DNA of 64,000 nt from Clostridia bacterium (GCA_017625935.1 JAGALA010000034.1:18593-82592), one strand, 5' to 3'; numbered from the stretch's first letter, positions 4,732-64,000 are shown. Notes: generated by a model not told the origin, from the letters alone. A program made the numbers and translations.

Positions 4732-5835
4732 TTAATCCAAATTAAGTGAATCGAGGTCGAAATCGTCGCTATCGATGTCGAAGTCCTCATCTGGTGTGGC
4801 TTCTTGGTTTGATAATTTTTCCTTGATTTTTTCTTCAAGGACGCTCATAAGCTCCGGGTTGTCCTCAAAATATTTTCTTGCGTTGTCCTTGCCCTGTGCA
4901 ATCTTTGAGCCCTCGTATGAGAACCAAGAGCCACTCTTCAAAACAAGTCCAAGCTCAATTGCAATGTCGATAATCTCGGAGGATTTTGAAATACCCTTGC
5001 CGTAAATCATATCGAATTCGGCAACCGTGAACGGTGGCGCAACCTTATTTTTAACAACCTTGCATTTTACGTGGTTACCGTATGCAACGGTGCCGTTTTT
5101 AAGGGTGTCCGCCTTTCTTACGTCAATTCTTACCGACGCGTAGAACTTAAGCGCACGTCCGCCAGTTGTTGTTTCGGGGTTTCCGTACATTACGTTTAAT
5201 TTTTCACGAAGCTGGTTGATAAAAATTACAATACAGTTTGTCTTTGCAATAGCGCCCGAGAGCTTTCTTAGTGCCTGTGACATAAGGCGCGCCTGAAGTC
5301 CCATATGAGAATCTCCCATTGAGCCCTCAATTTCCTGTCTTGGAACAAGCGCCGCAACGGAGTCAACAACTATAATATCAACCGCACCCGAGGAAACGAG
5401 CTTTTCCGTAATTTCAAGCGCCTGCTCACCGTTATCGGGCTGAGAAACTAAAAGCTCGTCAATATTAACGCCTATTGCCTTTGCATATACGGGGTCAAGT
5501 GCGTGCTCCGCATCGATAAATGCCGCTGTGCCGCCAAGCTTTTGGCTCTCGGCAACCGCGTGAAGCGCAATAGTTGTTTTACCCGAGGATTCAGGACCGT
5601 AAATTTCTATAATTCTGCCCTTTGGAAGTCCGCCAACGCCAAGTGCCAAGTCAAGCGTTAATGAGCCTGTTGAAATAGCTCCTATTTGAATATCTGCCTT
5701 ATCGCCAAGGCGTCTTATCGACTCCTCGCCGCATTCCTTTTTTATTTGTGAGAGCGCGGTTTCAAGTGCCTTTTTCTTTTCCTGGTCATTTGTTACCATC
5801 TCTGCCTTCGTTACCTTTGTAGCCTTTTTTGCCAT
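4732..5835 (-). CDS. recA: Recombinase RecA
   Basis: The Walker A motif GPESSGKTT and the canonical RecA core are present. The start was chosen at MAKKATK (ATG at 5835) because it is preceded by a GGAG RBS. The longer ORF to 5883 lacks an RBS. Confidence 0.95.
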
Positions 5836-52148: not shown

Positions 52149-55082
52149 ATGAAAAAGCAAATATGCATATTTTTCGCACTGCTTATGGCAATACTTATGC
52201 TTGCGGGCTGTGCTTTAAGCGGTGGTAGGGACACAGGCGGAGCAACAGATGACACAAGCGGAGGCGAGGTAGAGGTGCCCGATGCACCAACCGATTCCGA
52301 CACGAATGTGGACAAGCCTACCGACACAGACACGGGCGTTGGCGGCGAGCCAAGTGAGCCGAGTGAGCCGAGTGAGCCAAGCGAGCCCGAAAAGCCGAGT
52401 GAGCCAAGCGAGCCGAGCAAGCCCGAAAATCCAGATGAGCCAAGCGGTGTTGAAATTACAGTATCCAAAACCGCGGCACAGCTTGCCGAATCAATTGGCA
52501 AGGGGGAAAACGGTGACATTGTCAGCGGAAGCGAAATCAAGCTTGACAATAACATTTCAGTTGAGTTTGGCAAGGGTACAGCAAACACCGAGCCTGCGCT
52601 TTACAGTGAGGCAATAAGAATTTACCAAAACGGCGGTACGCTTACCGTTAGTGCCAAAAACGGCAGAGAGCTAAAAGCAATTATCATCACCGCATCTGAC
52701 GGTAAAACAGGCAGCGGCAGGCTTGTTGCCTCTGACGGAAGTGAAATAAGCGTAAGTGGCAACATAATTACAATTACGCCAAGCAATACTCAAGAGGTGA
52801 CAGTTACCGTTGGCGGCTCAAATAAGAGTGACCGTCTTTACGTTGAGTCAATTGAGGTTGTCTATATGGGACAAAGCGGCGACGGTACGATACCAAACGA
52901 GCCGAGCGAGCCCGAAAATCCCGATATAGGCGGCGGTGACGGAAAGGAATATTTATATAATGATTTTACCGCCGAGGAAAAAAGCACGTATGAAAAATAC
53001 GTAGGGCTTGTAATTCCGTTCCTTGCAAACAATGATTACTACATAGAAAGCTATGACGAGGAGGGCTATCAGGGCGTTTACCTCTCTGCCCTTTGCGAAA
53101 GCGAGGAGGATTTCGGTTGGTATCTTGCAAAATTCTCATCCTATACAAATGACGGCACAGACGTTGACGAATACGGCGACACGTGGTATCTTTTCTCACA
53201 AGGAAACGTATATATTGACGTTTGCTACTATGAATATGAGGGCGCGTACTACGTTGACGTTGACGCATACCGCGAGTCAAGCGGTGACGTTGGCGGTGAC
53301 ACAACCGAGCCCGAGGACCCCGACACGGGTGACGGAGAGGGCGAATATCAGTATTACGAATTTACAGCCCAGGAAAAAAGCACGTACAACGATTACGTTG
53401 GGCTTGTGATTCCGTTTATTCCAAACAACTACTACGAAATAGAAGCATATGACGAGGGCGGCTACCGTGGCGTTTACTACTCTGCTCTTTGCAAGAGCGA
53501 AACCGCGTTTAGCTGGTATCTTGCAATGTTCTCCTCTTACTCAAATGACGGCACGGACGTTGACGAATACGGTGACACTTGGTATCTTTTCTCACAAGGC
53601 AATGTTTTTATTGACGTTTGCTACTATCAATACGAGGGTGCGTACTACGTTGACGTTGACGCATACCGCGAGTCAAGCGGTGACGTTGGCGGCGATGTTG
53701 GCGGCGGTGACGATGGCGGCGACTCAGGCGGAAACGATAATATCGGCGGCGAGGGTGACAAGGACGTAATAACAAACGCAGGTGCTTCCCTGCCAGAGGA
53801 CGACGGCGACGGAATATATGACGTTGATTTTACGGATGCCGACAAGGTAAAGGACGTAACCGACCAGGGCTACTTCCTTGACGGATGCCCAACGCTCGGC
53901 TCCTCGGGCGTGCTTGTTATTCCCGTTGAGTTCAGCGACAGAACCGCATCGAGCTTAGGCTACGATATAGACAACATTAAAAGCGCATTTGAAAAGGGCG
54001 GCGAAAACATCTATTATTCCGTTTACGACTATTACTACATATCGAGCTTAGGTCAGCTGACGCTTGATATTACCGTCGTTGACGAGTGGTTCCGTCCGTC
54101 AAAGCCAAGCACCTACTATGCAAGCTACACCGATAACTACGATGGGACAGAAACTCCAATGGGTGACCAGCTCGTAATTGACGAGGCACTTGCTTACCTT
54201 GCGGAAATAATGGACCTTTCAAAATTCGATTCCGACTCTAACGGAACGATAGATGCCGTTGTGCTTGTAACAACGCTTGAAATTGACCCCGACACAGATT
54301 TTTATTGGGCGTACAGATATTGGAACATATACGCGGACGAGAATGACAATTACTACGAATATGACGGAGTGAGCGCAAACGATTACCTTTGGGCGCCCTA
54401 CGAGTTCATTCACGAAAACCCCGAAAATAGCGAGGACTACTCCGATAAATCGATTATAAATCCGTACACCTTTATTCACGAGTTTGGACACATTCTCGGC
54501 GCTGAGGATTACTACGATACAGCCTACGCAGGCTCGTCCCCGCTTGACGGCAACGATATAATGGATGCAAAAATCGGTGACCATAACGCCTACACGAAAT
54601 TCAACCTCGGCTGGATAACAAATTCCCGCCTTGTTGTAACAGACACCGAAATCACCGTAACGCTCGATGCGTTTTCCGAAAGCGGCGATACGCTGATAAT
54701 AGCAAACAACTTCGACCCATCCCTTGGCGTATATCAAGAATACTACATAATAGTTTACTATACCGAGGATGAATTAAACTCGGGCGTGGGCGGCTATTTT
54801 GACGGAGAGGGCATTATCGTTTACCACGTCAACGCTTCTCTTTTCTGTGAGGAGTACGATGGCGAGATGTATTACGACGTATATAACACCAACACCGACC
54901 CAAGCGACAGCTACGGCACGGAAAACAACCTAATTGAGCTTGTAGAAAACGACTTTGGTTATCTATTCTTAGAGGGCGACACCTTAGGTACGCTCACTGA
55001 TGACCTCGGCGCGCCCCTTGGCTACACCTTCACGGTTGAGTCCTTGGGAGAACAGGCAACTCTTACAGTAAGCGCAAAATAA
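52149..55082 (+). CDS. Secreted zinc metalloprotease lipoprotein (M6/immune inhibitor A-like, HEFGH)
   Basis: The lipobox is LAGC. An (EPS)n linker and two internal repeats of about 118 aa are present. The C-terminal peptidase domain has FIHEFGHILGAEDYYD. Confidence 0.75.
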   Translation: MKKQICIFFALLMAILMLAGCALSGGRDTGGATDDTSGGEVEVPDAPTDSDTNVDKPTDTDTGVGGEPSEPSEPSEPSEPEKPSEPSEPSKPENPDEPSGVEITVSKTAAQLAESIGKGENGDIVSGSEIKLDNNISVEFGKGTANTEPALYSEAIRIYQNGGTLTVSAKNGRELKAIIITASDGKTGSGRLVASDGSEISVSGNIITITPSNTQEVTVTVGGSNKSDRLYVESIEVVYMGQSGDGTIPNEPSEPENPDIGGGDGKEYLYNDFTAEEKSTYEKYVGLVIPFLANNDYYIESYDEEGYQGVYLSALCESEEDFGWYLAKFSSYTNDGTDVDEYGDTWYLFSQGNVYIDVCYYEYEGAYYVDVDAYRESSGDVGGDTTEPEDPDTGDGEGEYQYYEFTAQEKSTYNDYVGLVIPFIPNNYYEIEAYDEGGYRGVYYSALCKSETAFSWYLAMFSSYSNDGTDVDEYGDTWYLFSQGNVFIDVCYYQYEGAYYVDVDAYRESSGDVGGDVGGGDDGGDSGGNDNIGGEGDKDVITNAGASLPEDDGDGIYDVDFTDADKVKDVTDQGYFLDGCPTLGSSGVLVIPVEFSDRTASSLGYDIDNIKSAFEKGGENIYYSVYDYYYISSLGQLTLDITVVDEWFRPSKPSTYYASYTDNYDGTETPMGDQLVIDEALAYLAEIMDLSKFDSDSNGTIDAVVLVTTLEIDPDTDFYWAYRYWNIYADENDNYYEYDGVSANDYLWAPYEFIHENPENSEDYSDKSIINPYTFIHEFGHILGAEDYYDTAYAGSSPLDGNDIMDAKIGDHNAYTKFNLGWITNSRLVVTDTEITVTLDAFSESGDTLIIANNFDPSLGVYQEYYIIVYYTEDELNSGVGGYFDGEGIIVYHVNASLFCEEYDGEMYYDVYNTNTDPSDSYGTENNLIELVENDFGYLFLEGDTLGTLTDDLGAPLGYTFTVESLGEQATLTVSAK

Positions 55083-55089
55083 AACAATA

Positions 55090-55118
55090 AAAAGAACAGC
55101 CTCGGCTGTTCTTTTTTT
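55090..55118 (+). terminator. Rho-independent terminator
   Basis: The stem gaacagcc-tc-ggctgttc is followed by TTTTTTT. Confidence 0.8.
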
Positions 55119-55179: not shown

Positions 55180-55500
55180 TGAAAATATTTTCAAAAATTG
55201 TGTCAAAATTGTAAACTGACAAAAATTCAAAAACGAAAGTAATTTTCACGAAAATGGCGAAAAAGTGAAAAAAATTTTCAAAAATGTGCGATTTTGTAAA
55301 AATTAGTGAAAATTTTTCTATATTATAGATTACTTGGTTTATTTTGAAAACCGTACTAAAATTTTACGGAAATTGTTGACAAAACGTAATTCTTGTGCTA
55401 AAATCGGAATTGTGAAAGTATTTTTCATTAATATTGAAAATAATTTTCATAAAACACAAAAGTTAAGTGAAAATGTTTCAAAAAGTGAAAATAATTTTCA
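55180..55500. promoter_or_regulatory. Cluster of about 7 TGAAA-N3-5-TTTCA palindromes plus a sigma-A promoter upstream of the rpiR/BMC locus
   Basis: Palindromes: tgaaaatattttca at 55180-55193, tgaaaaaaattttca at 55266-55280, tgaaagtatttttca at 55413-55427, tgaaaataattttca at 55435-55449 and 55486-55500, and tgaaaatgtttca at 55468-55480. The promoter is TTGACA (55375-55380), a 17-nt spacer and TAAAAT. Confidence 0.6.
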
Positions 55501-55544: not shown

Positions 55545-56384
55545 TTGAACAGGACTTTACTTCAAGCTCAGCTTATGTACAATGACATGGGCAGATCCGA
55601 GAAGAAGGTCGCTGACTGGTTGTTTTCTCACTCCGGTGAGGTACTGCCCTATTCCATAACAGATTTTGCCTCTAAATGTGAAAGCAGTGAGGCAACGATA
55701 GTCCGTTTTTCAAAGCGGCTTGGCTGCTCGGGCTATAAGGATTTAAAAATCACATTGGCACAGGAGCACGAAAAGAAGGTTATCGCTCCTATGATAACGA
55801 GCGAGGACGACTGCTTCTCTATTTTTGAAAAGGTATGCAACGATGCGTATATGTCGCTTGAGCGTACGAAAAAGACCCTTTCCGCCGGCAGTATGACAAA
55901 CGCGGTTAAGGCAATTTCGTCGGCAAGGCGCGTGGTGCTTATCGGTCTTGGCACGTCGGCTCAGGTTGCGGAGGATGCAAGCAATAAGCTGCTTCGCGCG
56001 GGCTGTAACTCAAGTGCGTATGCCGATACGCATATGCAGGCGATAGCCGTTTCTCAGCTGAGAGCAGGCGACGTCGTTGTGGGAATATCTCAATCGGGCT
56101 CGTCTAAGGATATAGTGGAGGCAATGAAGATGGCAAGGGCGCACGGCGCTACCACCATCTCGATAACCTCAAAGGAGCGCTCGCCTATCATAAGGCAAAG
56201 CGATATTGTGCTTCTTACCGATACGGAGGAAACAAGACACAGTACATTAGGACTCAATTCTCATATTTCAAGGCTTGTCGTTATTGACGCCTTGTGCTAC
56301 AAAATCGTTTATCAGAACTCCGCAACCGCCCACAGCGTTGGCGAAAGCGAGGCGGAGCTTCAGTCTAAACGAATAATTGAATAG
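55545..56384 (+). CDS. RpiR-family transcriptional regulator (HTH_6 plus SIS domain)
   Basis: The HTH region is ITDFASKCESSEATIVRFSKRLGCSGYKDLK. The SIS region is GLGTSAQVA. A TTG start at 55545 lies 6 nt after AAAGGAGG. Confidence 0.8.
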   Translation: MNRTLLQAQLMYNDMGRSEKKVADWLFSHSGEVLPYSITDFASKCESSEATIVRFSKRLGCSGYKDLKITLAQEHEKKVIAPMITSEDDCFSIFEKVCNDAYMSLERTKKTLSAGSMTNAVKAISSARRVVLIGLGTSAQVAEDASNKLLRAGCNSSAYADTHMQAIAVSQLRAGDVVVGISQSGSSKDIVEAMKMARAHGATTISITSKERSPIIRQSDIVLLTDTEETRHSTLGLNSHISRLVVIDALCYKIVYQNSATAHSVGESEAELQSKRIIE

Positions 56385-56426
56385 CTTACAATTAAATTTA
56401 TATATCAATAAAGAAGGAGAGGAAAA

Positions 56427-57617
56427 ATGAAAATTCTCGTTGTAAACGCCGGAAGCTCATCACTTAAGTATCAGCTTTTCGATATGGACACCGGCGACGT
56501 TCTCGCAAAGGGCTTATGCGAGAGAATCGGCATTGACGGAGCAATCACTCACAAGCGCCCGGGAAAAGAAAATTACAAGAGCGAAGCACCCCTTAAAGAC
56601 CATAAGGCTGCTATTGAGCTTGTTTTGTCGCTTCTTTGCGACCCCGACCTTGGCGTAATTTCAAGTGCGGACGAAATCGGTGCTGTCGGACACAGAGTTG
56701 CCCACGGCGGAGAAAAGCTCCGCCAGTCAAGCGTAATCGGCGAAAAAGAGCTTGAATACCTTGAAAGCATAGTTGAAATCAACCCACTCCACGGCCCACC
56801 CGCCATAAGCGGAATCAAGGCTTGCCAAAGTGTAATGCCAAACGTGAAGCACGTTGGAGTCTTTGATACCTCCTATTATTCAACAATGGAGGAAAAAGCG
56901 TACATCTACCCTATTCCCTATGAGCTTTATGAAAAATATAAGATTCGTCGCTACGGCTTCCACGGTACCTCACACAGGTACGTGTGCCAAAAGGTGATGG
57001 ACATTTTAGGAAATAAGGATGCAAAAGTAATCACCTGTCACTTAGGTAACGGCTCGTCCATTACCGCAAGCGTAGGCGGACGCGCAGTTGACACCTCAAT
57101 GGGCTTTACCCCGCAGGAGGGCGTGCCGATGGGAACGCGCAGCGGCTCCCTTGACCCAACGGTTGTAACATATATAATGAAAAAGGAAGGACTTAATCCT
57201 GAGGAAATGGAAAAGCTCCTTAACTCGAAATCGGGACTTCTTGGCGTGTCGGGTGTTTCAAGCGACTGCCGTGACGTTATGATTGCCGAGGGTGAGGGAA
57301 GCAAGCGTTCAGCTCTTGCTATGGAAATTCTCGTTCATTATATTAAAAAAATTATCGGCTCGTACGTTGCTGAAATGAACGGGCTTGATGCCTTGGTGTT
57401 TACAGCGGGCATCGGTGAAAACGACGGCGTTGTAAGAGAGCTTATTTGTAAGGATCTTTCCTATCTCGGCGTTGAAATCGACAGCGAGGTAAACCTTGGC
57501 GCAAAGCGAGGCACACAAACGGAAATTACAAAGGCGGGTGCTAAGGTAAGAACCTTTGCTATACCAACCGACGAGGAATATATGATTGCCCTCGATACCT
57601 ACGCTTTATCAAAATGA
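56427..57617 (+). CDS. ackA: Acetate (acyl) kinase
   Basis: The N-terminus is ILVVNAGSSSLKYQLF. The protein is 396 aa and the canonical AckA core is present. Confidence 0.93.
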   Translation: MKILVVNAGSSSLKYQLFDMDTGDVLAKGLCERIGIDGAITHKRPGKENYKSEAPLKDHKAAIELVLSLLCDPDLGVISSADEIGAVGHRVAHGGEKLRQSSVIGEKELEYLESIVEINPLHGPPAISGIKACQSVMPNVKHVGVFDTSYYSTMEEKAYIYPIPYELYEKYKIRRYGFHGTSHRYVCQKVMDILGNKDAKVITCHLGNGSSITASVGGRAVDTSMGFTPQEGVPMGTRSGSLDPTVVTYIMKKEGLNPEEMEKLLNSKSGLLGVSGVSSDCRDVMIAEGEGSKRSALAMEILVHYIKKIIGSYVAEMNGLDALVFTAGIGENDGVVRELICKDLSYLGVEIDSEVNLGAKRGTQTEITKAGAKVRTFAIPTDEEYMIALDTYALSK

Positions 57618-57660
57618 TTATTAAAAAAATTTATATACAAATTGAAAGGAAAAAAGAAAA

Positions 57661-58410
57661 ATGAAATCAGCTTACGAAATTAAAAAGGAAATCTGTGAAG
57701 TCGGCCACGCGCTCTATCACCTCGGCTTTGTTGCCGCAAACGACGGTAATATCTCCGTTAAGGTTAGCGAAAACGAGTACTACTGCACACCAACAGGCGT
57801 ATCAAAGGGTACTCTTACCCCTGATATGATTATCAAGGTTGACAGAAACGGAAACAAGATTGAGGGCAAGCTCAATCCGTCATCTGAAATTAAGATGCAT
57901 ATGCGCGTTTACCAAAAGCGTCCCGACGTTGGCGCGGTTGTTCACGCTCACCCACCGATAGCTACTGCATTTACAATCGCAGGCATCGACCTTGACCAGT
58001 ATATTCTTCCCGAGGCAGTTCTTACAATCGGCGAGGTTCCAACCTGCGCATACGGAACACCCTCAACTATGGAAATTCCCGACTCACTTGAGCCATACAT
58101 CGAAAACCACGACGCATTCCTTCTCCAAAACCACGGTGCTTTGACAGTTGGCTTCAACCTTCAAAAGGCTATGTTCGTTATGGAAGAGGTAGAATTCAAC
58201 GCAAAGATTTGTAAGTACGCAATGGAGCTTGGCGCGGTACACGAAATCCCGAACGATCAGCTTAAGAAGCTTATGGACCTTCGTAAGAAGATGAACATCC
58301 CTGGCCGTCACCCCGGCATTGACTACGGTGAGCATGAGTGCAAGTGCGATGCTAACGAGGAGCTCGTTGCTGAAATCACACGCCGCGTTATAGCAGCTCT
58401 CGGAAAATAA
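57661..58410 (+). CDS. Class II aldolase (L-fuculose/rhamnulose-1-phosphate aldolase-like) with a C-terminal encapsulation-peptide-like helix
   Basis: The class II aldolase/adducin N-terminal pattern AANDGNISV and the His cluster VVHAHPP are present. The amphipathic C-terminal tail is EELVAEITRRVIAALGK. Confidence 0.8.
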   Translation: MKSAYEIKKEICEVGHALYHLGFVAANDGNISVKVSENEYYCTPTGVSKGTLTPDMIIKVDRNGNKIEGKLNPSSEIKMHMRVYQKRPDVGAVVHAHPPIATAFTIAGIDLDQYILPEAVLTIGEVPTCAYGTPSTMEIPDSLEPYIENHDAFLLQNHGALTVGFNLQKAMFVMEEVEFNAKICKYAMELGAVHEIPNDQLKKLMDLRKKMNIPGRHPGIDYGEHECKCDANEELVAEITRRVIAALGK

Positions 58411-58450
58411 TTTCTCCACATCATATCAATTTTAAGGAAAGGAGAAAATT

Positions 58451-59908
58451 ATGGCTATAAATTGGACAGATGCGCAAATTGAAGAAATCGTAGCCTCTGT
58501 TATGAAGGGGCTGACGGGCGAGGCTCCCAAGGCGAAGCCACAGTACTGCGGTGCGGGCTATAACGGCAAAAAATATATCGGCGTTTACGAGGATATGAAC
58601 GACGCAATCGATGCCGCCGAGGCAGGCTACCGTGCAATTCGCGCAATGTCGCTTGAGGAAAGAGAAAAGGTTATCAATATAATCCGTGACCTTTGCCGTA
58701 AGGAAGCGCCGACAATGGCGTCCTTAGGTGTTGATGAAACCAAAATGGGCAGAGTTGACCACAAAACCGCAAAGCACATCTTGGTTGCGGACAAAACACC
58801 GGGCACATCCGACATTGTCGCAGACGTAAAAACGGGCGACTACGGCTTGACCCTTACCGAAATGGCTCCCTTTGGAGTTGTCGGCAGTATCACCCCAAGC
58901 ACAAACCCATCGGAAACAGTTATTTGTAACAGTATAGGAATGATAGCCGCAGGCAACGGCGTTGTTTTCAACCCACATCCTAACGCTATCGCAACCTCAA
59001 ACTACGCGGTAGATTTGATTAACCGCGCGAGCGCTATGGCAGGCGGCCCCTCCGTTCTTGTTTCATCGGTTGTGAAGCCGACGCTTGATACCGCAAGCAT
59101 AATGTATAAGGACCCAAGAATCAGACTGCTTGTTTGCACAGGCGGACCGGGGGTTGTTAAGAGCGTTTTATCAAGCGGTAAAAAGGCAATCGGCGCAGGT
59201 GCGGGAAATCCTCCTGTAATAGTTGACGATACAGCTGATATAAAGAAGGCGGGCAAGGACATCATCGACGGCTGTACCTTTGACAATAACCTACCCTGCA
59301 TTGCGGAAAAGGAGGTATTTGCCTTCGCTAATATTGCAGACGAGCTTATCGATGCAATGAAAGCAAACGGCGCTTACCTTATAAGCTCACAGGATGCAGA
59401 TAAGCTTGCCAAGATTGTTCTCGTTGAGAAAACAAACCCGAAAACAGGTATAAAGTCAAAAATTGTCAACCGTGACTGCGTTGGCAGAGACGCAAAGGTG
59501 TTGCTTGAAAAAATCGGCATTTATGTAGGCAACGACATTCGCTGCATTATTTGCGAAACATCCTTCGAGCACGAGTTTGTGCAAGAGGAGCTTATGATGC
59601 CTATTTTGCCTATCGTAAGAGTAAAAAATATTGACGAGGCAATTTCGCTTGCGGTTAAAGCCGAGCACGGCAACCGCCACACAGCGCATATGCACTCTAA
59701 AAATATTGACAATCTCACAAGATTTGCACGCGCCGTTGAAACTACTATATTTGTAAAGAACGCACCGTCCTACGCAGGCATCGGCTTTGGCGGAGAGGGA
59801 CACACAACCTTTACAATAGCAGGCCCGACAGGCGAGGGTATTACAAGTGCAAGGAGCTTTACAAGAAAGCGCCGTTGCGTTCTCTCTGAAAGCTTCAGAA
59901 TAATCTAA
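58451..59908 (+). CDS. CoA-acylating aldehyde dehydrogenase (PduP/EutE family) with an N-terminal encapsulation peptide
   Basis: The catalytic Cys context is NNLPCIAEKE. The N-terminal amphipathic helix is DAQIEEIVASVMKGL. Confidence 0.85.
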   Translation: MAINWTDAQIEEIVASVMKGLTGEAPKAKPQYCGAGYNGKKYIGVYEDMNDAIDAAEAGYRAIRAMSLEEREKVINIIRDLCRKEAPTMASLGVDETKMGRVDHKTAKHILVADKTPGTSDIVADVKTGDYGLTLTEMAPFGVVGSITPSTNPSETVICNSIGMIAAGNGVVFNPHPNAIATSNYAVDLINRASAMAGGPSVLVSSVVKPTLDTASIMYKDPRIRLLVCTGGPGVVKSVLSSGKKAIGAGAGNPPVIVDDTADIKKAGKDIIDGCTFDNNLPCIAEKEVFAFANIADELIDAMKANGAYLISSQDADKLAKIVLVEKTNPKTGIKSKIVNRDCVGRDAKVLLEKIGIYVGNDIRCIICETSFEHEFVQEELMMPILPIVRVKNIDEAISLAVKAEHGNRHTAHMHSKNIDNLTRFARAVETTIFVKNAPSYAGIGFGGEGHTTFTIAGPTGEGITSARSFTRKRRCVLSESFRII

Positions 59909-59922
59909 GAAAGGAAAAAGAA

Positions 59923-61119
59923 ATGAATATTTCATCATCACAGGTAGAGAGCATAGTTCGCAAGATTCTCGGTGAGGTTTCTGGCGCAAAGACTGCATCG
60001 GCAGGTGTGCCGAAAACCGCTAAGGTTGCAATGCTCACCGCGCCTAAGAAGATTGAGGTTAAGGAATACCCTATTCCAACCGTTGGTGACAACGATATCC
60101 TCGTTAAGGTTGAGGGCTGCGGCGTTTGCGGAACTGACGTTCACGAGTGGAAGGGTGACCCCTTCGGCATTATTCCCGTTACTCTCGGTCACGAGGGAAC
60201 AGGTGAAATTATCGCTCTCGGTAAAAATATAAAGGCAGATACCGCAGGCAACCCGATTAAGGTTGGCGACAAGATTGTTACCTCAGTTATCAGCTGCGGC
60301 GAATGCTTCGTTTGCCGTAACAAGCCCGCAAATACCAACCTTTGCGACAAGCAGGGCGTATTCGGACTTATCCCACATAACGATGCAAATCCGCTTACAG
60401 GCTGGTTTGCTTCACACCTTCTTATCAGCGGCAAGGGCTCTACATATTTCGTTGTAAACGACCTTGACTTGAAGGAAAGAATGCTCCTTGAGCTTGCTTG
60501 CGTTTGCGTGCACGCACTCAAAAGAGCTAACACCACGGGTCTTATCAACTTTAACTCAAAGGTTTTGGTTCAAGGCCTTGGCCCTGTCGGTCTTGTTATG
60601 ATTAGCGTGCTTCGTGCAGCGGGTGTAAACCATATCGTTGCAATTGACGGCACTCCCAAGCGCCTTGAAATGGCAAAGAAGCTTGGCGCTAAGACAGTTA
60701 TCAGCTTCAAGGAGGTTAGCTCACTTGAGGAAAGAGTAAATATCGTTAAGAAGGCCGCAAACGGCGTGGGCGTTGACTTTGCATTCCAATGCACAGGCGC
60801 ACCTATGGCGGCTAAGGATATTTACGAATACATTCGCCGCGGCGGCGGAATGTGCGAAATGGGCTTCTTTGTAAACAACGGCGAATATACCGTTAACCCA
60901 CACTTCGCAATGTGCAACAAGGAAATTAACATTGTAGGCTCTTGGGACTACAGCGCGGATGACTATCCGACGACTATGGCGTTCCTCCGTCAAGCAAGAG
61001 AAATGAACATTCCGATAAAGGAGCTTATCACTCATACCTTCCCTCTTGACAAGCTCAACGAGGCAATGGAGGTTAACGTTTCTCAGGCAGGCATTAAAAT
61101 CTGCTACGTTGCGGAATAA
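59923..61119 (+). CDS. Zinc-dependent medium-chain alcohol dehydrogenase with an N-terminal encapsulation-peptide-like helix
   Basis: The motifs CGVCGTDVH and GHEGTGEI are present. The N-terminus is SSQVESIVRKILGEV. Confidence 0.8.
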   Translation: MNISSSQVESIVRKILGEVSGAKTASAGVPKTAKVAMLTAPKKIEVKEYPIPTVGDNDILVKVEGCGVCGTDVHEWKGDPFGIIPVTLGHEGTGEIIALGKNIKADTAGNPIKVGDKIVTSVISCGECFVCRNKPANTNLCDKQGVFGLIPHNDANPLTGWFASHLLISGKGSTYFVVNDLDLKERMLLELACVCVHALKRANTTGLINFNSKVLVQGLGPVGLVMISVLRAAGVNHIVAIDGTPKRLEMAKKLGAKTVISFKEVSSLEERVNIVKKAANGVGVDFAFQCTGAPMAAKDIYEYIRRGGGMCEMGFFVNNGEYTVNPHFAMCNKEINIVGSWDYSADDYPTTMAFLRQAREMNIPIKELITHTFPLDKLNEAMEVNVSQAGIKICYVAE

Positions 61120-61150
61120 GCCAAGACCGAGGAAGCAAAGGAGTTAAATT

Positions 61151-61468
61151 ATGGCTCTTGGAATGATTGAGGTTTATGGCTTTGCCACTGCAATTGTGGT
61201 TGCTGACGCTATGGCTAAGGCGGCTGAGGTTAAGGTGGTTGCCATTGACAAAAACAAGCCCGCAGGCGGTGACTCGGCAAGAGTGCCACTCGTTATGGCT
61301 ATAAAGATAGAGGGCTCGGCTGCCGCTGTTGAAGCTGCTATTTTGGCAGGCAAGGCGGAGGCAGAAAAGCGCGAGCTTTATATCACACATAAGGTAATTG
61401 CCAGACAGAGCGAGGATATTGAATGGTTTGCACACCTCTCTGCTCTTGGTAAGGATAAATTAAGATAA
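61151..61468 (+). CDS. BMC-H shell protein (Pfam00936-type) with a C-terminal extension
   Basis: The sequence is ALGMIEVYGFATAIVVADAMAKAA... Confidence 0.85.
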   Translation: MALGMIEVYGFATAIVVADAMAKAAEVKVVAIDKNKPAGGDSARVPLVMAIKIEGSAAAVEAAILAGKAEAEKRELYITHKVIARQSEDIEWFAHLSALGKDKLR

Positions 61469-61492
61469 TTAAATTAAAAGGAGAATAAAACA

Positions 61493-61768
61493 ATGATGGA
61501 AGCATTAGGAATGGTAGAAACAAGAGGCTTGGTTGCTGCAATTGAGGCGGCAGACGCTATGGTAAAGGCGGCAAACGTAGTTCTCGTTGGAAGCGAAAAG
61601 ATCGGTAGCGGTCTTGTTAGCGTTATGGTTCGCGGCGACGTTGGCGCAGTTAAGGCAGCAGTTGAGGCAGGAAGCGCAGCTGCAACATCACTTGGCGAGG
61701 TTATTGCAACTCACGTAATCCCAAGACCGCACGCAGACGTTGAAAAGCTTCTTCCTATTATAAAATAA
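61493..61768 (+). CDS. BMC-H shell protein (PduA/EutM-like)
   Basis: The sequence is [27 protein letters not shown]...IPRPH. Confidence 0.92.
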
Positions 61769-61785
61769 TTTAAGGAATTTATAGT

Positions 61786-62058
61786 ATGAAGGCAATAGCG
61801 TTACTTGAAGTGCAGGCAATGGTAGCCGCCATCGCAGGACTTGACGCTATGGTAAAGGCAGCCGACGTAAAGCTCATTCACGTGGAAAAGCGCCTCGGCG
61901 GCAGACTGGTGACGGTTGTTGTTGAGGGTGAGGTTTCCGCGGTAAAAGCATCGCTTGAAGCAGGTGCGGCGGAAGCGGCTAAGGTCGGAAACGTTAAGTG
62001 CTGTGAGGTTATTGCACGCCCACACCCCGACGTTATGAGATTTTTAACAACGGGCTAA
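61786..62058 (+). CDS. BMC-H shell protein
   Basis: The sequence is AIALLEVQAMVAAIAGLDAMVKAADV...IARPH. Confidence 0.85.
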   Translation: MKAIALLEVQAMVAAIAGLDAMVKAADVKLIHVEKRLGGRLVTVVVEGEVSAVKASLEAGAAEAAKVGNVKCCEVIARPHPDVMRFLTTG

Positions 62059-62148
62059 GATGGCAAAGCCATCACAAAATCAGTTTTTGAAGCTTATGCT
62101 TTGAAATATAAAACAAAATAATAATAATTCTTATAGGAGGATTTTAAA

Positions 62149-62421
62149 ATGGAAGCACTCGGAATGGTAGAAACAAGAGGTCTTGTAGCTGCAATTGAGG
62201 CGGCTGACGCTATGGTAAAGGCAGCAAACGTTGTTCTTATCGGCAGCGAAAAGATCGGTAGCGGTCTTGTTAGCGTTATGGTTCGCGGCGACGTTGGTGC
62301 AGTTAAGGCAGCAGTTGAGGCAGGATCAGCAGCTGCAACTTCACTCGGTGAGGTTATTGCAACTCACGTTATTCCAAGACCGCACGCAGACGTTGAAAAG
62401 CTTCTCCCTTCAATTAAATAA
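62149..62421 (+). CDS. BMC-H shell protein (near-identical paralog of 61493-61768)
   Basis: The protein differs from the paralog at 2 aligned residues, plus one extra N-terminal Met in the other copy. Confidence 0.92.
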
Positions 62422-62546
62422 TTATAGAAGGATAGCTTTCAGTATCCAAAGGGCACTTGCCCTTTGGGTACTGCAAAAGAGCTTAAATAAACCGTTGAGC
62501 TTTTTTGCAGTACTAATCTATGAAAAAGCGAGAGAAAGGAAAGAAA

Positions 62547-63200
62547 ATGGATATTTCAACTGAAAAAATAGCCGAAATGGTAAAGCGCGCGCTTCTTGAA
62601 ATAAAAGGCGAGCAAAAGCCAAGCACAGATGGCGCAATTCCCATCGGCGTTTCAAACAGACACATACATCTATCGAAGAGCGACCTTGAAACCCTGTTCG
62701 GCGAGGGATATGAGCTGACACCCATAAAGGAGCTTTCTCAGCCGGGACAGTATGCGTGCAAGGAGCAGCTTACCATAATCGGCCCGTCAATGCGCCCGAT
62801 TGAAAACGTAAGAGTTTTAGGACCTGTAAGAAAAGCATCACAGGTTGAAATATCAGCGACTGACTCCTACGTTTTGAAGGTGAAGCCGCCTGTGCGTGAG
62901 TCTGGCAATATAAAGGACTCCGCCCCCATAAGAATCGTAGGGCCTAAGGGCGTTGTGGAGCTAAACGAGGGCTGTATAATCGCAAACAGACATATTCATA
63001 TGTCCCCTGCCGAGGCTGAGGTGTTTGGACTTCGCGACGGTGACTACGTTGATATTGACGTAAACGGAAAGCGCCGCACAAGATGGTTTGACGTTCAGGT
63101 AAGGGTGCACAAGGATTTCCGCCTTGAGATGCACGTCGATACAGATGATGCAAACGCGGCAGGCATAGGAAACGGCTTTACGGTAACTATCGCAAAATAA
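62547..63200 (+). CDS. pduL: Phosphate acyltransferase PduL with an N-terminal encapsulation peptide
   Basis: Two PduL repeats are present (GVSNRHIHLS and ANRHIHMS). The N-terminal helix is EKIAEMVKRALLEI. The start at MDIST (62547) follows AAAGGAAAG. Confidence 0.88.
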   Translation: MDISTEKIAEMVKRALLEIKGEQKPSTDGAIPIGVSNRHIHLSKSDLETLFGEGYELTPIKELSQPGQYACKEQLTIIGPSMRPIENVRVLGPVRKASQVEISATDSYVLKVKPPVRESGNIKDSAPIRIVGPKGVVELNEGCIIANRHIHMSPAEAEVFGLRDGDYVDIDVNGKRRTRWFDVQVRVHKDFRLEMHVDTDDANAAGIGNGFTVTIAK

Positions 63201-63231
63201 CATAGCAAATAAAATTTGTGAGGAAATAAAA

Positions 63232-63480
63232 ATGTTAAAGGGAATTATCAGAGGAAACATCGTTTCCACAAGAAAGCAGGACTCCTTGGTTGGCAGTAAG
63301 TTTATGGAGGTTCAGCTTATTAAAAACGGTCAGTTTACAGACGAATATATTATAGCTATTGACTCCGTTGGCGCAGGCATAGGTGAAACCGTGCTTATAA
63401 CAACGGGCAGCTCAGCGCGCTTGGCTTTGCATAACACAAACAGCCCCGCTGACGCAGTTATTGTAGGTATTGTCGATTAA
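63232..63480 (+). CDS. BMC-P pentameric vertex protein (EutN/CcmL family)
   Basis: The protein is 82 aa with MLKGIIRGNIVSTRK...AVIVGIVD. Confidence 0.88.
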   Translation: MLKGIIRGNIVSTRKQDSLVGSKFMEVQLIKNGQFTDEYIIAIDSVGAGIGETVLITTGSSARLALHNTNSPADAVIVGIVD

Positions 63481-63497
63481 AAAACGTGAGGGGGCGG

Positions 63498-63588
63498 GAC
63501 GTCGCCCAAAACAGGTCGTCGAGGACGTCGCTAAAACGGGTCGTCGAGGACGTCGCTAAAACGGGTCGTCGGGGACGTCGACCCCTAC
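63498..63588 (-). repeat. REP-like element expanded into about 3.6 tandem 25/26-bp units (GTAGGGG head on the minus strand)
   Basis: Units of gacgtcgc[c/t]aaaac[a/g]ggtcgtcgag lie at 63498-63523, 63524-63548 and 63549-63573, with a partial unit at 63574-63588 ending in cccctac. Confidence 0.85.
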
Positions 63589-63616
63589 GATGGAAATTAT
63601 TTGAAAGAGTGAAAAG

Positions 63617-64000
63617 ATGCAGGAACTAAAGAACATAATGCGCAATTTCGGCATTGTTGGTGCCGGAGGAGCGGGGTTCCCCTCTTACGCGAAGCTTGCG
63701 GAGGGGGCAAACCTCCTCCTTATTAACGGCTCGGAGTGTGAGCCGCTTTTATACACAGACTACGTTATTCTTAAAAACGAAATGACTATGGTGCTCTCGG
63801 GCATTTCAGAGGTGCTTTCGCACACGGGCATACCAAAGGCACTTTTGGCGGTAAAATCGCATACGGCGAAAATGCTCGGTCTTTGGGACGGTGAAAAGCT
63901 CGCTGAGAAAATTTACGTAAGAGAGCTGCCCGACGTCTACCCTATCGGTGACGAGGTGAGCCTTATATATGAATCAACGGGCAGACAGATAAAGCCGGGT
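63617..64000 (+). CDS. RnfC/PduS-like flavoprotein, N-terminal part (runs off the right window edge)
   Basis: Manual translation gives MQELKNIMRNFGIVGAGGAGFPSYAKL...NGSECEPLLYTDY. The GAGGAGFP and ECEP motifs are typical of the RnfC/NuoF-like SLBB family found in BMC loci. Confidence 0.7.
   Translation, partial: MQELKNIMRNFGIVGAGGAGFPSYAKLAEGANLLLINGSECEPLLYTDYVILKNEMTMVLSGISEVLSHTGIPKALLAVKSHTAKMLGLWDGEKLAEKIYVRELPDVYPIGDEVSLIYESTGRQIKPG

Follow-up and report, generated by a model that had tools for sequence, protein, structure and literature searches.

Near the 3' end of the 64,000-nt stretch of Clostridia bacterium DNA analysed here (the window; contig C29:18593-82592 of a 2.08 Mb, ~95% complete genome), a bacterial microcompartment (BMC) operon starts at position 55545 and runs across the window edge. 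It was analysed together with the downstream 20 kb (L009, C29:82000-101999), where adding 63407 to an L009 position gives the window-equivalent coordinate. Open reading frame (ORF) and domain calls place every gene of the locus on the + strand, both in the window and downstream, and the operon extends 7 kb beyond the window end with no change of strand, so that the transcription unit spans window position 55545 to window-equivalent position 71156. The window very probably holds the 5' two-thirds of a ~15.6-kb, 20-gene operon of the GRM5 type, one of the glycyl-radical microcompartment (GRM) classes. The features inside the window are:

55376-55404, + strand: sigma-70-like promoter, a consensus match only (TTGACA-17-TAAAAT with TG, 11/12 consensus matches)
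55545-56384, + strand: RpiR-family regulator, 279 aa, with HTH_6 (PF01418) and sugar-phosphate-binding SIS (PF01380) domains
56427-57617, + strand: acetate/propionate kinase AckA, in the AckA/PduW role (PF00871, 458 bits), position conserved in the clade
57661-58410, + strand: class II aldolase (PF00596, by domain calls), predicted fuculose/rhamnulose-1-phosphate aldolase of GRM5
58451-59908, + strand: CoA-acylating propionaldehyde dehydrogenase (AldDH) of the PduP/EutE type (NF011927, 667 bits versus a cut-off of 403)
59923-61119, + strand: Zn-dependent, MDR-type (medium-chain dehydrogenase/reductase) alcohol dehydrogenase (ADH), corresponding to the GRM5 lactaldehyde reductase (PF08240 and PF00107)
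61151-61468, 61493-61768, 61786-62058 and 62149-62421, + strand: four BMC-H shell genes (PF00936 in each)
62547-63200, + strand: phosphotransacylase PduL (PF06130, 261 bits)
63232-63480, + strand: BMC-P pentamer (vertex) protein (PF03319, 96 bits), the sole BMC-P of the genome
63617-64000, + strand: 5' part of a PduS-like RnfC/PduS flavoprotein (Complex1_51K, SLBB, Fer4_17 and RnfC_N)

Beyond the window end the operon continues with:

L009 210-1529, + strand: PduS at its full 439 aa, the continuation of the window gene at 63617
L009 1531-2076, + strand: PduT-like tandem-domain BMC-T, directly after PduS, with Cys38 in PSCPGK
L009 2103-4634, + strand: glycyl-radical enzyme (GRE) of 843 aa, predicted 1,2-propanediol (PD) dehydratase (PF02901, PFL-like, 811 bits; PF01228, Gly_radical, 121 bits)
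L009 4969-5751 (extended ORF 4837-5751), + strand: radical S-adenosylmethionine (SAM) activase, 260 aa, with CX3CX2C as its only cluster motif
L009 5753-6112, + strand: EutS/PduU-like BMC protein
L009 6112-6573, + strand: PduV/EutP
L009 6570-7361, + strand: ParA/Soj-type ATPase (ParA/MinD type)
L009 7348-7749, + strand: putative McdB-like disordered adaptor, 133 aa, with no Pfam or NCBIfam family match
L009 7768-7802: terminator hairpin with a 15-bp stem, 3' of the 133-aa adaptor gene

A hairpin at 55089-55116 closes the gene preceding the promoter, and between the window genes and the adaptor gene there is no terminator ahead of the hairpin following the latter. The true start of the RpiR gene is the TTG at 55545, with GAAAGGAGG just upstream, which agrees with the coordinate given in a first-pass annotation of the window; the gene order listed there, from RpiR through to the truncated RnfC/PduS-like flavoprotein, was recovered completely. 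The ORF of PduL opens at 62520, and the starts of its orthologues (MDISTEKIAEM) place the start codon at the second Met, at 62547. BMC-H genes 2 and 4 are 98% identical, and all four BMC-H genes are conserved in every related locus. No second BMC locus and no second GRE of the PD-dehydratase type is present in the genome, and Rfam gave no riboswitch or other RNA family at the gathering threshold, either in the window or in the 20 kb downstream of it.

The first-pass annotation had recognised a metabolosome, and this is borne out, but it had assigned the locus to an aldolase-type class resembling the planctomycete-verrucomicrobial microcompartments (PVM), having seen no diol dehydratase, ethanolamine lyase or GRE. 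While this is correct inside the window, the GRE gene lies directly downstream, starting 27 nt past the BMC-T gene and ~1.5 kb past the window end, and with its activase it belongs to the same operon, which is the very finding that the annotation had named as one that would reclassify the locus as GRM-type. The absence of a BMC-T likewise holds within the window only, as the search past position 64000 that had been recommended turned up the PduT-like BMC-T as the gene after PduS. We assign the locus with high confidence to the known family of GRM5 operons, with fucose/rhamnose as predicted substrates and with predicted encapsulation of the enzymes. GRM5 is defined by a PD-dehydratase GRE, a fuculose-phosphate aldolase (FPA; PF00596) and a lactaldehyde reductase (LR; PF00107 and PF08240) (PMC6325248, Ferlez 2019), with PduS and PduT always present and an activase without a ferredoxin insert (PMC6325248), and all of these features (5/5) are found here; the activase, 260 aa long from its real start, has neither a ferredoxin insert nor a ferredoxin motif. 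The Zn-type ADH had been flagged as less typical, but it is diagnostic of GRM5, because an equivalent Zn-MDR dehydrogenase is present in published GRM5 loci (PMC6325248, PMC3557285), among them those of Clostridium phytofermentans and Roseburia inulinivorans, which also have the aldolase and show a 15-87-fold induction of the locus on fucose and rhamnose (PMC3557285, Petit 2013). Among the features flagged as unusual only the RpiR regulator is still so, the published GRM5 loci carrying DeoR. The window thus holds no new aldolase-type or PVM-like compartment of Clostridia, but a standard GRM5 metabolosome cut by the window edge.

With the GRM5 loci of C. phytofermentans (Cphy_1174-1187) and R. 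inulinivorans the present locus shares the PD-dehydratase GRE with an internal insert, the activase without ferredoxin insert, the EutS/PduU-like shell protein, the class II aldolase bearing an encapsulation peptide (EP) at its C-terminus, AldDH, the Zn-MDR lactaldehyde reductase, four BMC-H, PduL, BMC-P, PduS and PduT. Unlike in those two, the block order is reversed here (FPA to PduT first, and GRE, activating enzyme (AE), EutS and PduV second), AckA is part of the operon, RpiR replaces DeoR, the operon closes with genes for a ParA ATPase and a disordered adaptor, and the host is an uncultured animal-gut Clostridia lineage. The PVM and PVM-like metabolosomes (Erbilgin 2014; Axen 2014, PMC4207490) resemble it in their sugar source (fucose/rhamnose), in encoding AckA within the locus and in their class II aldolase, which is homologous and likewise has an EP at the C-terminal end; in that class the aldolase is the sole signature enzyme and there is no GRE, whereas here the GRE and its activase are present, as are the lactaldehyde reductase and PduS/PduT. 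The GRM3 locus of Rhodopseudomonas palustris (Zarzycki 2017, PMC5311937) also combines a PD-dehydratase GRE, with an EP-like intramolecular insert, with an AldDH/PduL core, but it has neither the aldolase nor the Zn lactaldehyde reductase, and a ferredoxin-like insert is present in its activase.

We expanded the comparison by scanning species-representative genomes with the GRE, which gave 80 loci onto which all proteins of the locus were mapped. The nearest of these (75-92% GRE identity) are from metagenome-assembled genomes (MAGs) of animal-gut Clostridia labelled as Eubacteriales, Oscillospiraceae, Candidatus Scatosoma and Christensenellaceae, the Ca. Scatosoma and Christensenellaceae MAGs being the nearest named relatives of the host, while the classical Lachnospiraceae, Blautia and Acetatifactor loci have 66-70% GRE identity. 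Gene for gene, identity to the Lachnospiraceae loci ranges from 47 to 89%. Gene content is identical to that of the classical Lachnospiraceae GRM5, with GRE-AE-EutS-PduV as block 1 and FPA-AldDH-LR-H-H-H-H-PduL-P-PduS-T as block 2, but where the Lachnospiraceae have block 1 first, the present clade has block 2 first, with AckA ahead of it and also RpiR where the flank reaches; RpiR orthologues are found at the equivalent position in the 7 related loci whose flank reaches that far. The clade thus represents an arrangement variant of GRM5 in which the blocks are exchanged, AckA is encoded within the operon and the regulator is RpiR. In a further set of mostly Acutalibacteraceae-type, GRM5-like loci (L045, L046, L049, L050, L053, L059, L064, L073, L086 and L089) there was no PduL match within the fetched flanks, and several were also without an AldDH match.

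By sequence the GRE is of the PD-dehydratase type, with a pocket like that of the R. inulinivorans diol dehydratase (RiDD) and an internal insert. RiDD (5I2A) is its closest solved relative, with 1187 bits and 62% identity over a single stretch (residues 8-841), compared with 1003 bits in two stretches for glycerol dehydratase, 1006 bits for the uncharacterised GRE 9RCO and ~600 bits for CutC. The alignments to glycerol dehydratase and 9RCO both break at an insert of ~45 residues (roughly 595-640) that is common to this GRE and 5I2A. The catalytic residues are all kept (H166, H283/S284, C438, E440, D452 and the radical glycine G819). The pocket was mapped from HMMER alignments to 5I2A and 1R8W, and at the positions which we take, from the glycerol dehydratase and RiDD structures, to separate the two enzymes, the residue is in each case that of RiDD: F344 for Y339 of glycerol dehydratase, V698 for S642, A453 for S448 and F160 for Y158. 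Assignments as a choline (CutC), glycerol, hydroxyproline, sulfonate or isethionate GRE were rejected on score and pocket residues.

Taken together, these genes suggest the following pathway. FucI or RhaA/RhaB would produce fuculose-1-phosphate or rhamnulose-1-phosphate in the cytosol, and the class II aldolase inside the shell would cleave either into dihydroxyacetone phosphate and L-lactaldehyde, which the Zn-dependent lactaldehyde reductase would reduce with NADH to 1,2-propanediol. The GRE dehydratase, once activated by the radical-SAM activase, would convert propanediol to propionaldehyde, AldDH would turn this into propionyl-CoA and regenerate NADH, PduL would form propionyl-phosphate and recycle CoA, and AckA, outside the shell, would yield propionate and ATP. 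The terminal encapsulation peptides would target the aldolase, the reductase, AldDH and PduL, and the internal insert the GRE. PduS and the PduT-like BMC-T are probable suppliers or relays of electrons, RpiR probably senses a sugar phosphate, and the ParA ATPase and the disordered adaptor probably act as McdAB does, spreading the organelles across the nucleoid. The fucose/rhamnose lactaldehyde logic of the first-pass annotation is retained in this scheme for the step from fuculose- or rhamnulose-phosphate to lactaldehyde, but not for the planctomycete-verrucomicrobial-like class that it was tied to. The lineage of uncultured animal-gut Clostridia would be one more that can make propionate and propanol from deoxy-sugars of mucin or plant origin.

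The sugar isomerases and the kinase which that annotation had suggested looking for are encoded on other contigs: L-fucose isomerase FucI (NF008220, 1026 bits versus a cut-off of 775), and RhaA (659 bits) with the rhamnulokinase gene rhaB adjacent; the coordinates for RhaA-RhaB and FucI are C44:8227-10969, C15:27270-29069 and C12:1281-2771. Since AraD is the only other gene of the class II aldolase fold in the genome, the operon aldolase is the only candidate for cleavage of fuculose-1-phosphate or rhamnulose-1-phosphate. The gene after FucI is nucleotidyltransferase-like and not a kinase. Further copies of two pathway genes lie outside the BMC locus, a PduL that is 52% identical (C51:35487-36053) and an AckA that is 49% identical (C43:380-1624), which presumably form the housekeeping acyl-phosphate route.

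Three observations weigh against the GRM5 fucose/rhamnose assignment. The aldolase scores below every NCBIfam equivalog cut-off, and for this reason we infer its substrate from the context; a DeoR-family regulator, typical of but not defining for the published GRM5 loci, is replaced by RpiR; and no dedicated fuculokinase was found in the ~95%-complete genome, where RhaB and XylB are the only FGGY kinases. The missing fuculokinase makes the fucose part of the assignment slightly less secure: the main or sole substrate may be rhamnose, or RhaB may be bifunctional. It also enters into the possibility that the GRE acts on another substrate (glycerol, another vicinal diol or a deoxy-sugar product), making the fucose/rhamnose assignment only partly right, as do the likeness in sequence of GRE eliminases, the annotations of which can be imprecise (PMC13450708), the identity of only 62% to the characterised RiDD, and the ~1000 bits that 9RCO and glycerol dehydratase each score against this GRE. 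Set against this are the RiDD residue at every discriminating pocket position and the presence of the PD-dehydratase-specific insert, the co-encoded aldolase and lactaldehyde reductase that would make 1,2-propanediol in situ, and the RhaA, RhaB and FucI genes of the genome, and we consider a different substrate very improbable. Even less can be said for a PVM-like metabolosome with the aldolase as signature enzyme, in which lactaldehyde would be converted to lactyl-CoA/lactate and 1,2-propanediol with no radical enzyme involved. Such a reading draws on the view from inside the window, where only the aldolase and the AldDH/PduL/AckA/ADH core are visible, and on the synteny of PVM-like loci with the FPA-to-PduT block of GRM5 (PMC4207490), but the GRE and activase come next in a strand-continuous operon with its terminator only past the adaptor gene, and the arrangement with GRE and activase is kept in 80/80 related loci. 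We reject the PVM-like classification on the downstream GRE and activase, which leave it hardly any probability.

For the GRM5 enzymes predicted to be encapsulated, the four terminal peptides proposed in the first-pass annotation stood up well to comparison with orthologues:

58357-58401, + strand: C-terminal EP of the aldolase, residues 233-247, with ELVAEITRRVLAALGK conserved in 55 orthologues
58469-58513, + strand: N-terminal EP of AldDH, residues 7-21, conserved helix and variable linker in 39 orthologues
59941-59979, + strand: N-terminal EP of the Zn-ADH, residues 7-19, conserved QVESIVRKILGE helix and variable linker in 53 orthologues
62562-62603, + strand: N-terminal EP of PduL, EKIAEMVKRALLEI, conserved helix and variable linker in orthologues

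All four are amphipathic and lie outside the catalytic domains, and in all four the helix is conserved (39-56 orthologues) while the length and composition of the linker vary widely, the linker ahead of the aldolase EP being variable and rich in Cys and Gly. Their hydrophobic moments are in the top 0.3-7% among all 14-mers of the locus proteins. AlphaFold2, run on the aldolase with a 33-sequence alignment, gave a confident core (confidence score, pLDDT, 88.7), a linker (residues 212-232) with pLDDT <50, and a detached, confident helix at 233-247, in agreement with a published survey that reported C-terminal EPs on BMC aldolases behind linkers of 23-81 residues (PMC4594438). The same survey cites alcohol dehydrogenase as an example of a protein without an EP (PMC4594438), against which the N-terminal peptide of the GRM5 reductase, clear and conserved as it is, is of some minor interest.

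The last two genes of the operon encode the ParA-type ATPase and the adaptor. The deviant (signature-lysine) Walker A motif KGGSGKTT of the ATPase is present in 32/32 orthologues, its position after PduV is fixed across the related loci, and its identity to the Soj of the same genome is 35%. Directly after ParA, every locus of the clade has a small ORF of 71-161 aa, usually with a 13-14 nt overlap with the ParA stop, and the ParA and adaptor pair is kept in ~30 related loci. The adaptor starts with MPIGKNAIKRV (G4 and K5 in 28/28, R10 in 27/28), continues with a K/A/P-rich middle of variable length, and ends in the tail [LVI]Gx[DE][LM]Px[YHFW]LL (P at -5 in 28/28, aromatic or His in 28/28); AlphaFold2 predicts it to be disordered (predicted template modelling score, pTM, 0.15) except for a helix at 5-13. 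At 90% identity the family falls into at least 500 clusters, none of them named, and two of its members are on independent metagenome contigs in the context EutS-PduV-ParA-partner. In two Lachnospiraceae/Ruminococcus loci, ParA lies upstream of the GRE and has no partner next to it.

Putative McdB-like proteins have been described beside PDU (propanediol utilisation) and GRM loci (MacCready 2021, PMC8359340 section 2.9; Basalla 2024, PMC11321042 Fig. 4), with a Tyr or Phe within the last five residues and acidic residues nearby (PMC11321042). In sequence terms the ParA and adaptor match the McdAB-like pairs that published work has predicted for GRM loci, and McdAB more generally: a ParA-type ATPase with deviant Walker A motif, and directly downstream a small, disordered, low-complexity partner with a conserved basic N-terminus and a C-terminal aromatic residue in the last five, with acidic residues nearby. 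Unlike carboxysomal McdB, with which it has no detectable sequence homology, the partner has, across its orthologues, Y/H/F/W at the aromatic position instead of an invariant W; the ParA does not resemble McdA more than it does Soj, and the cargo is a catabolic BMC and not a carboxysome, with positioning as the predicted function. We lean, by a modest degree, towards a built-in organelle-segregation module in this block-swapped, RpiR-controlled GRM5 variant, in which the N-terminal MPIGKNAIKR of the adaptor would activate the Soj-like ParA on the nucleoid while the [DE][LM]Px[YHFW]LL tail would dock on the shell. Two observations tell against it: ParA scores 109 bits to Soj/ParA structures versus 54 bits to the cyanobacterial McdA 6NOO, and the aromatic position of the tail is a His in the present genome rather than Tyr, Phe or Trp. 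The first of these also fits a module for DNA partition, or one associated with the nucleoid, that is no more than a neighbour of the BMC operon and positions no organelle, as do the weak histone-H1-like (PF07382) matches of the K/A/P-rich middle, which could bind DNA, and the chromosomal parAB genes only ~7 kb away. We regard such a module as unlikely, as the pair is translationally coupled to PduV inside the operon and ahead of the terminator, keeps its position on independent metagenome contigs and in ~30 species that differ in their flanking genes, has a partner without a folded DNA-binding domain in the AlphaFold2 model, carries a conserved acidic-aromatic C-terminal tail matching the published signature of BMC-associated McdB-like proteins (PMC11321042), and coexists with a separate Soj/Spo0J pair in the genome. 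The ParA-adaptor tail of the operon supports the existing prediction of active positioning for catabolic microcompartments, and its clear motifs offer targets for mutation. Should the segregation module be real, it would be a working positioning system for a catabolic microcompartment, and with at least 500 clusters and two sharp motifs a tractable model for the published hypothesis of 'McdAB beyond carboxysomes'.

Two repeats are found within the operon. Between the BMC-P and PduS genes lies a repeat of the REP type (repetitive extragenic palindrome; 63481-63597), with a 25-bp unit present 3.3 times in tandem (Tandem Repeats Finder, period 25) and ~20 further related copies scattered over the genome; it is a passenger element outside the BMC machinery. 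The 335-nt spacer between GRE and activase contains 3.5 copies of the 24-bp unit TACATCATTATTTGCAAAGCAAGC (L009 4858-4942, window-equivalent 68265-68349), each unit holding a small TTGC-AAA-GCAA hairpin, and through this repeat the activase ORF acquires a spurious N-terminal extension of 44 codons.

With regard to the surroundings of the operon, window positions 52149-55082 encode a secreted lipoprotein of 977 aa that contains the metalloprotease motif HEFGH and EPS-repeat linkers and has no Pfam match. The chromosomal soj/spo0J pair and a second, Noc-like ParB gene are at L009 12218-18104 (C29 ~94200-100100), and as soj/spo0J are thus ~7 kb downstream of the operon, the BMC locus probably sits near the replication origin. 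After the adaptor gene, the present genome has a GH38 mannosidase followed by a GDSL esterase, and in two relatives the gene at this place (L093 10373-13183 and L095 4617-7421) has a faint match to GH106, the alpha-L-rhamnosidase family.

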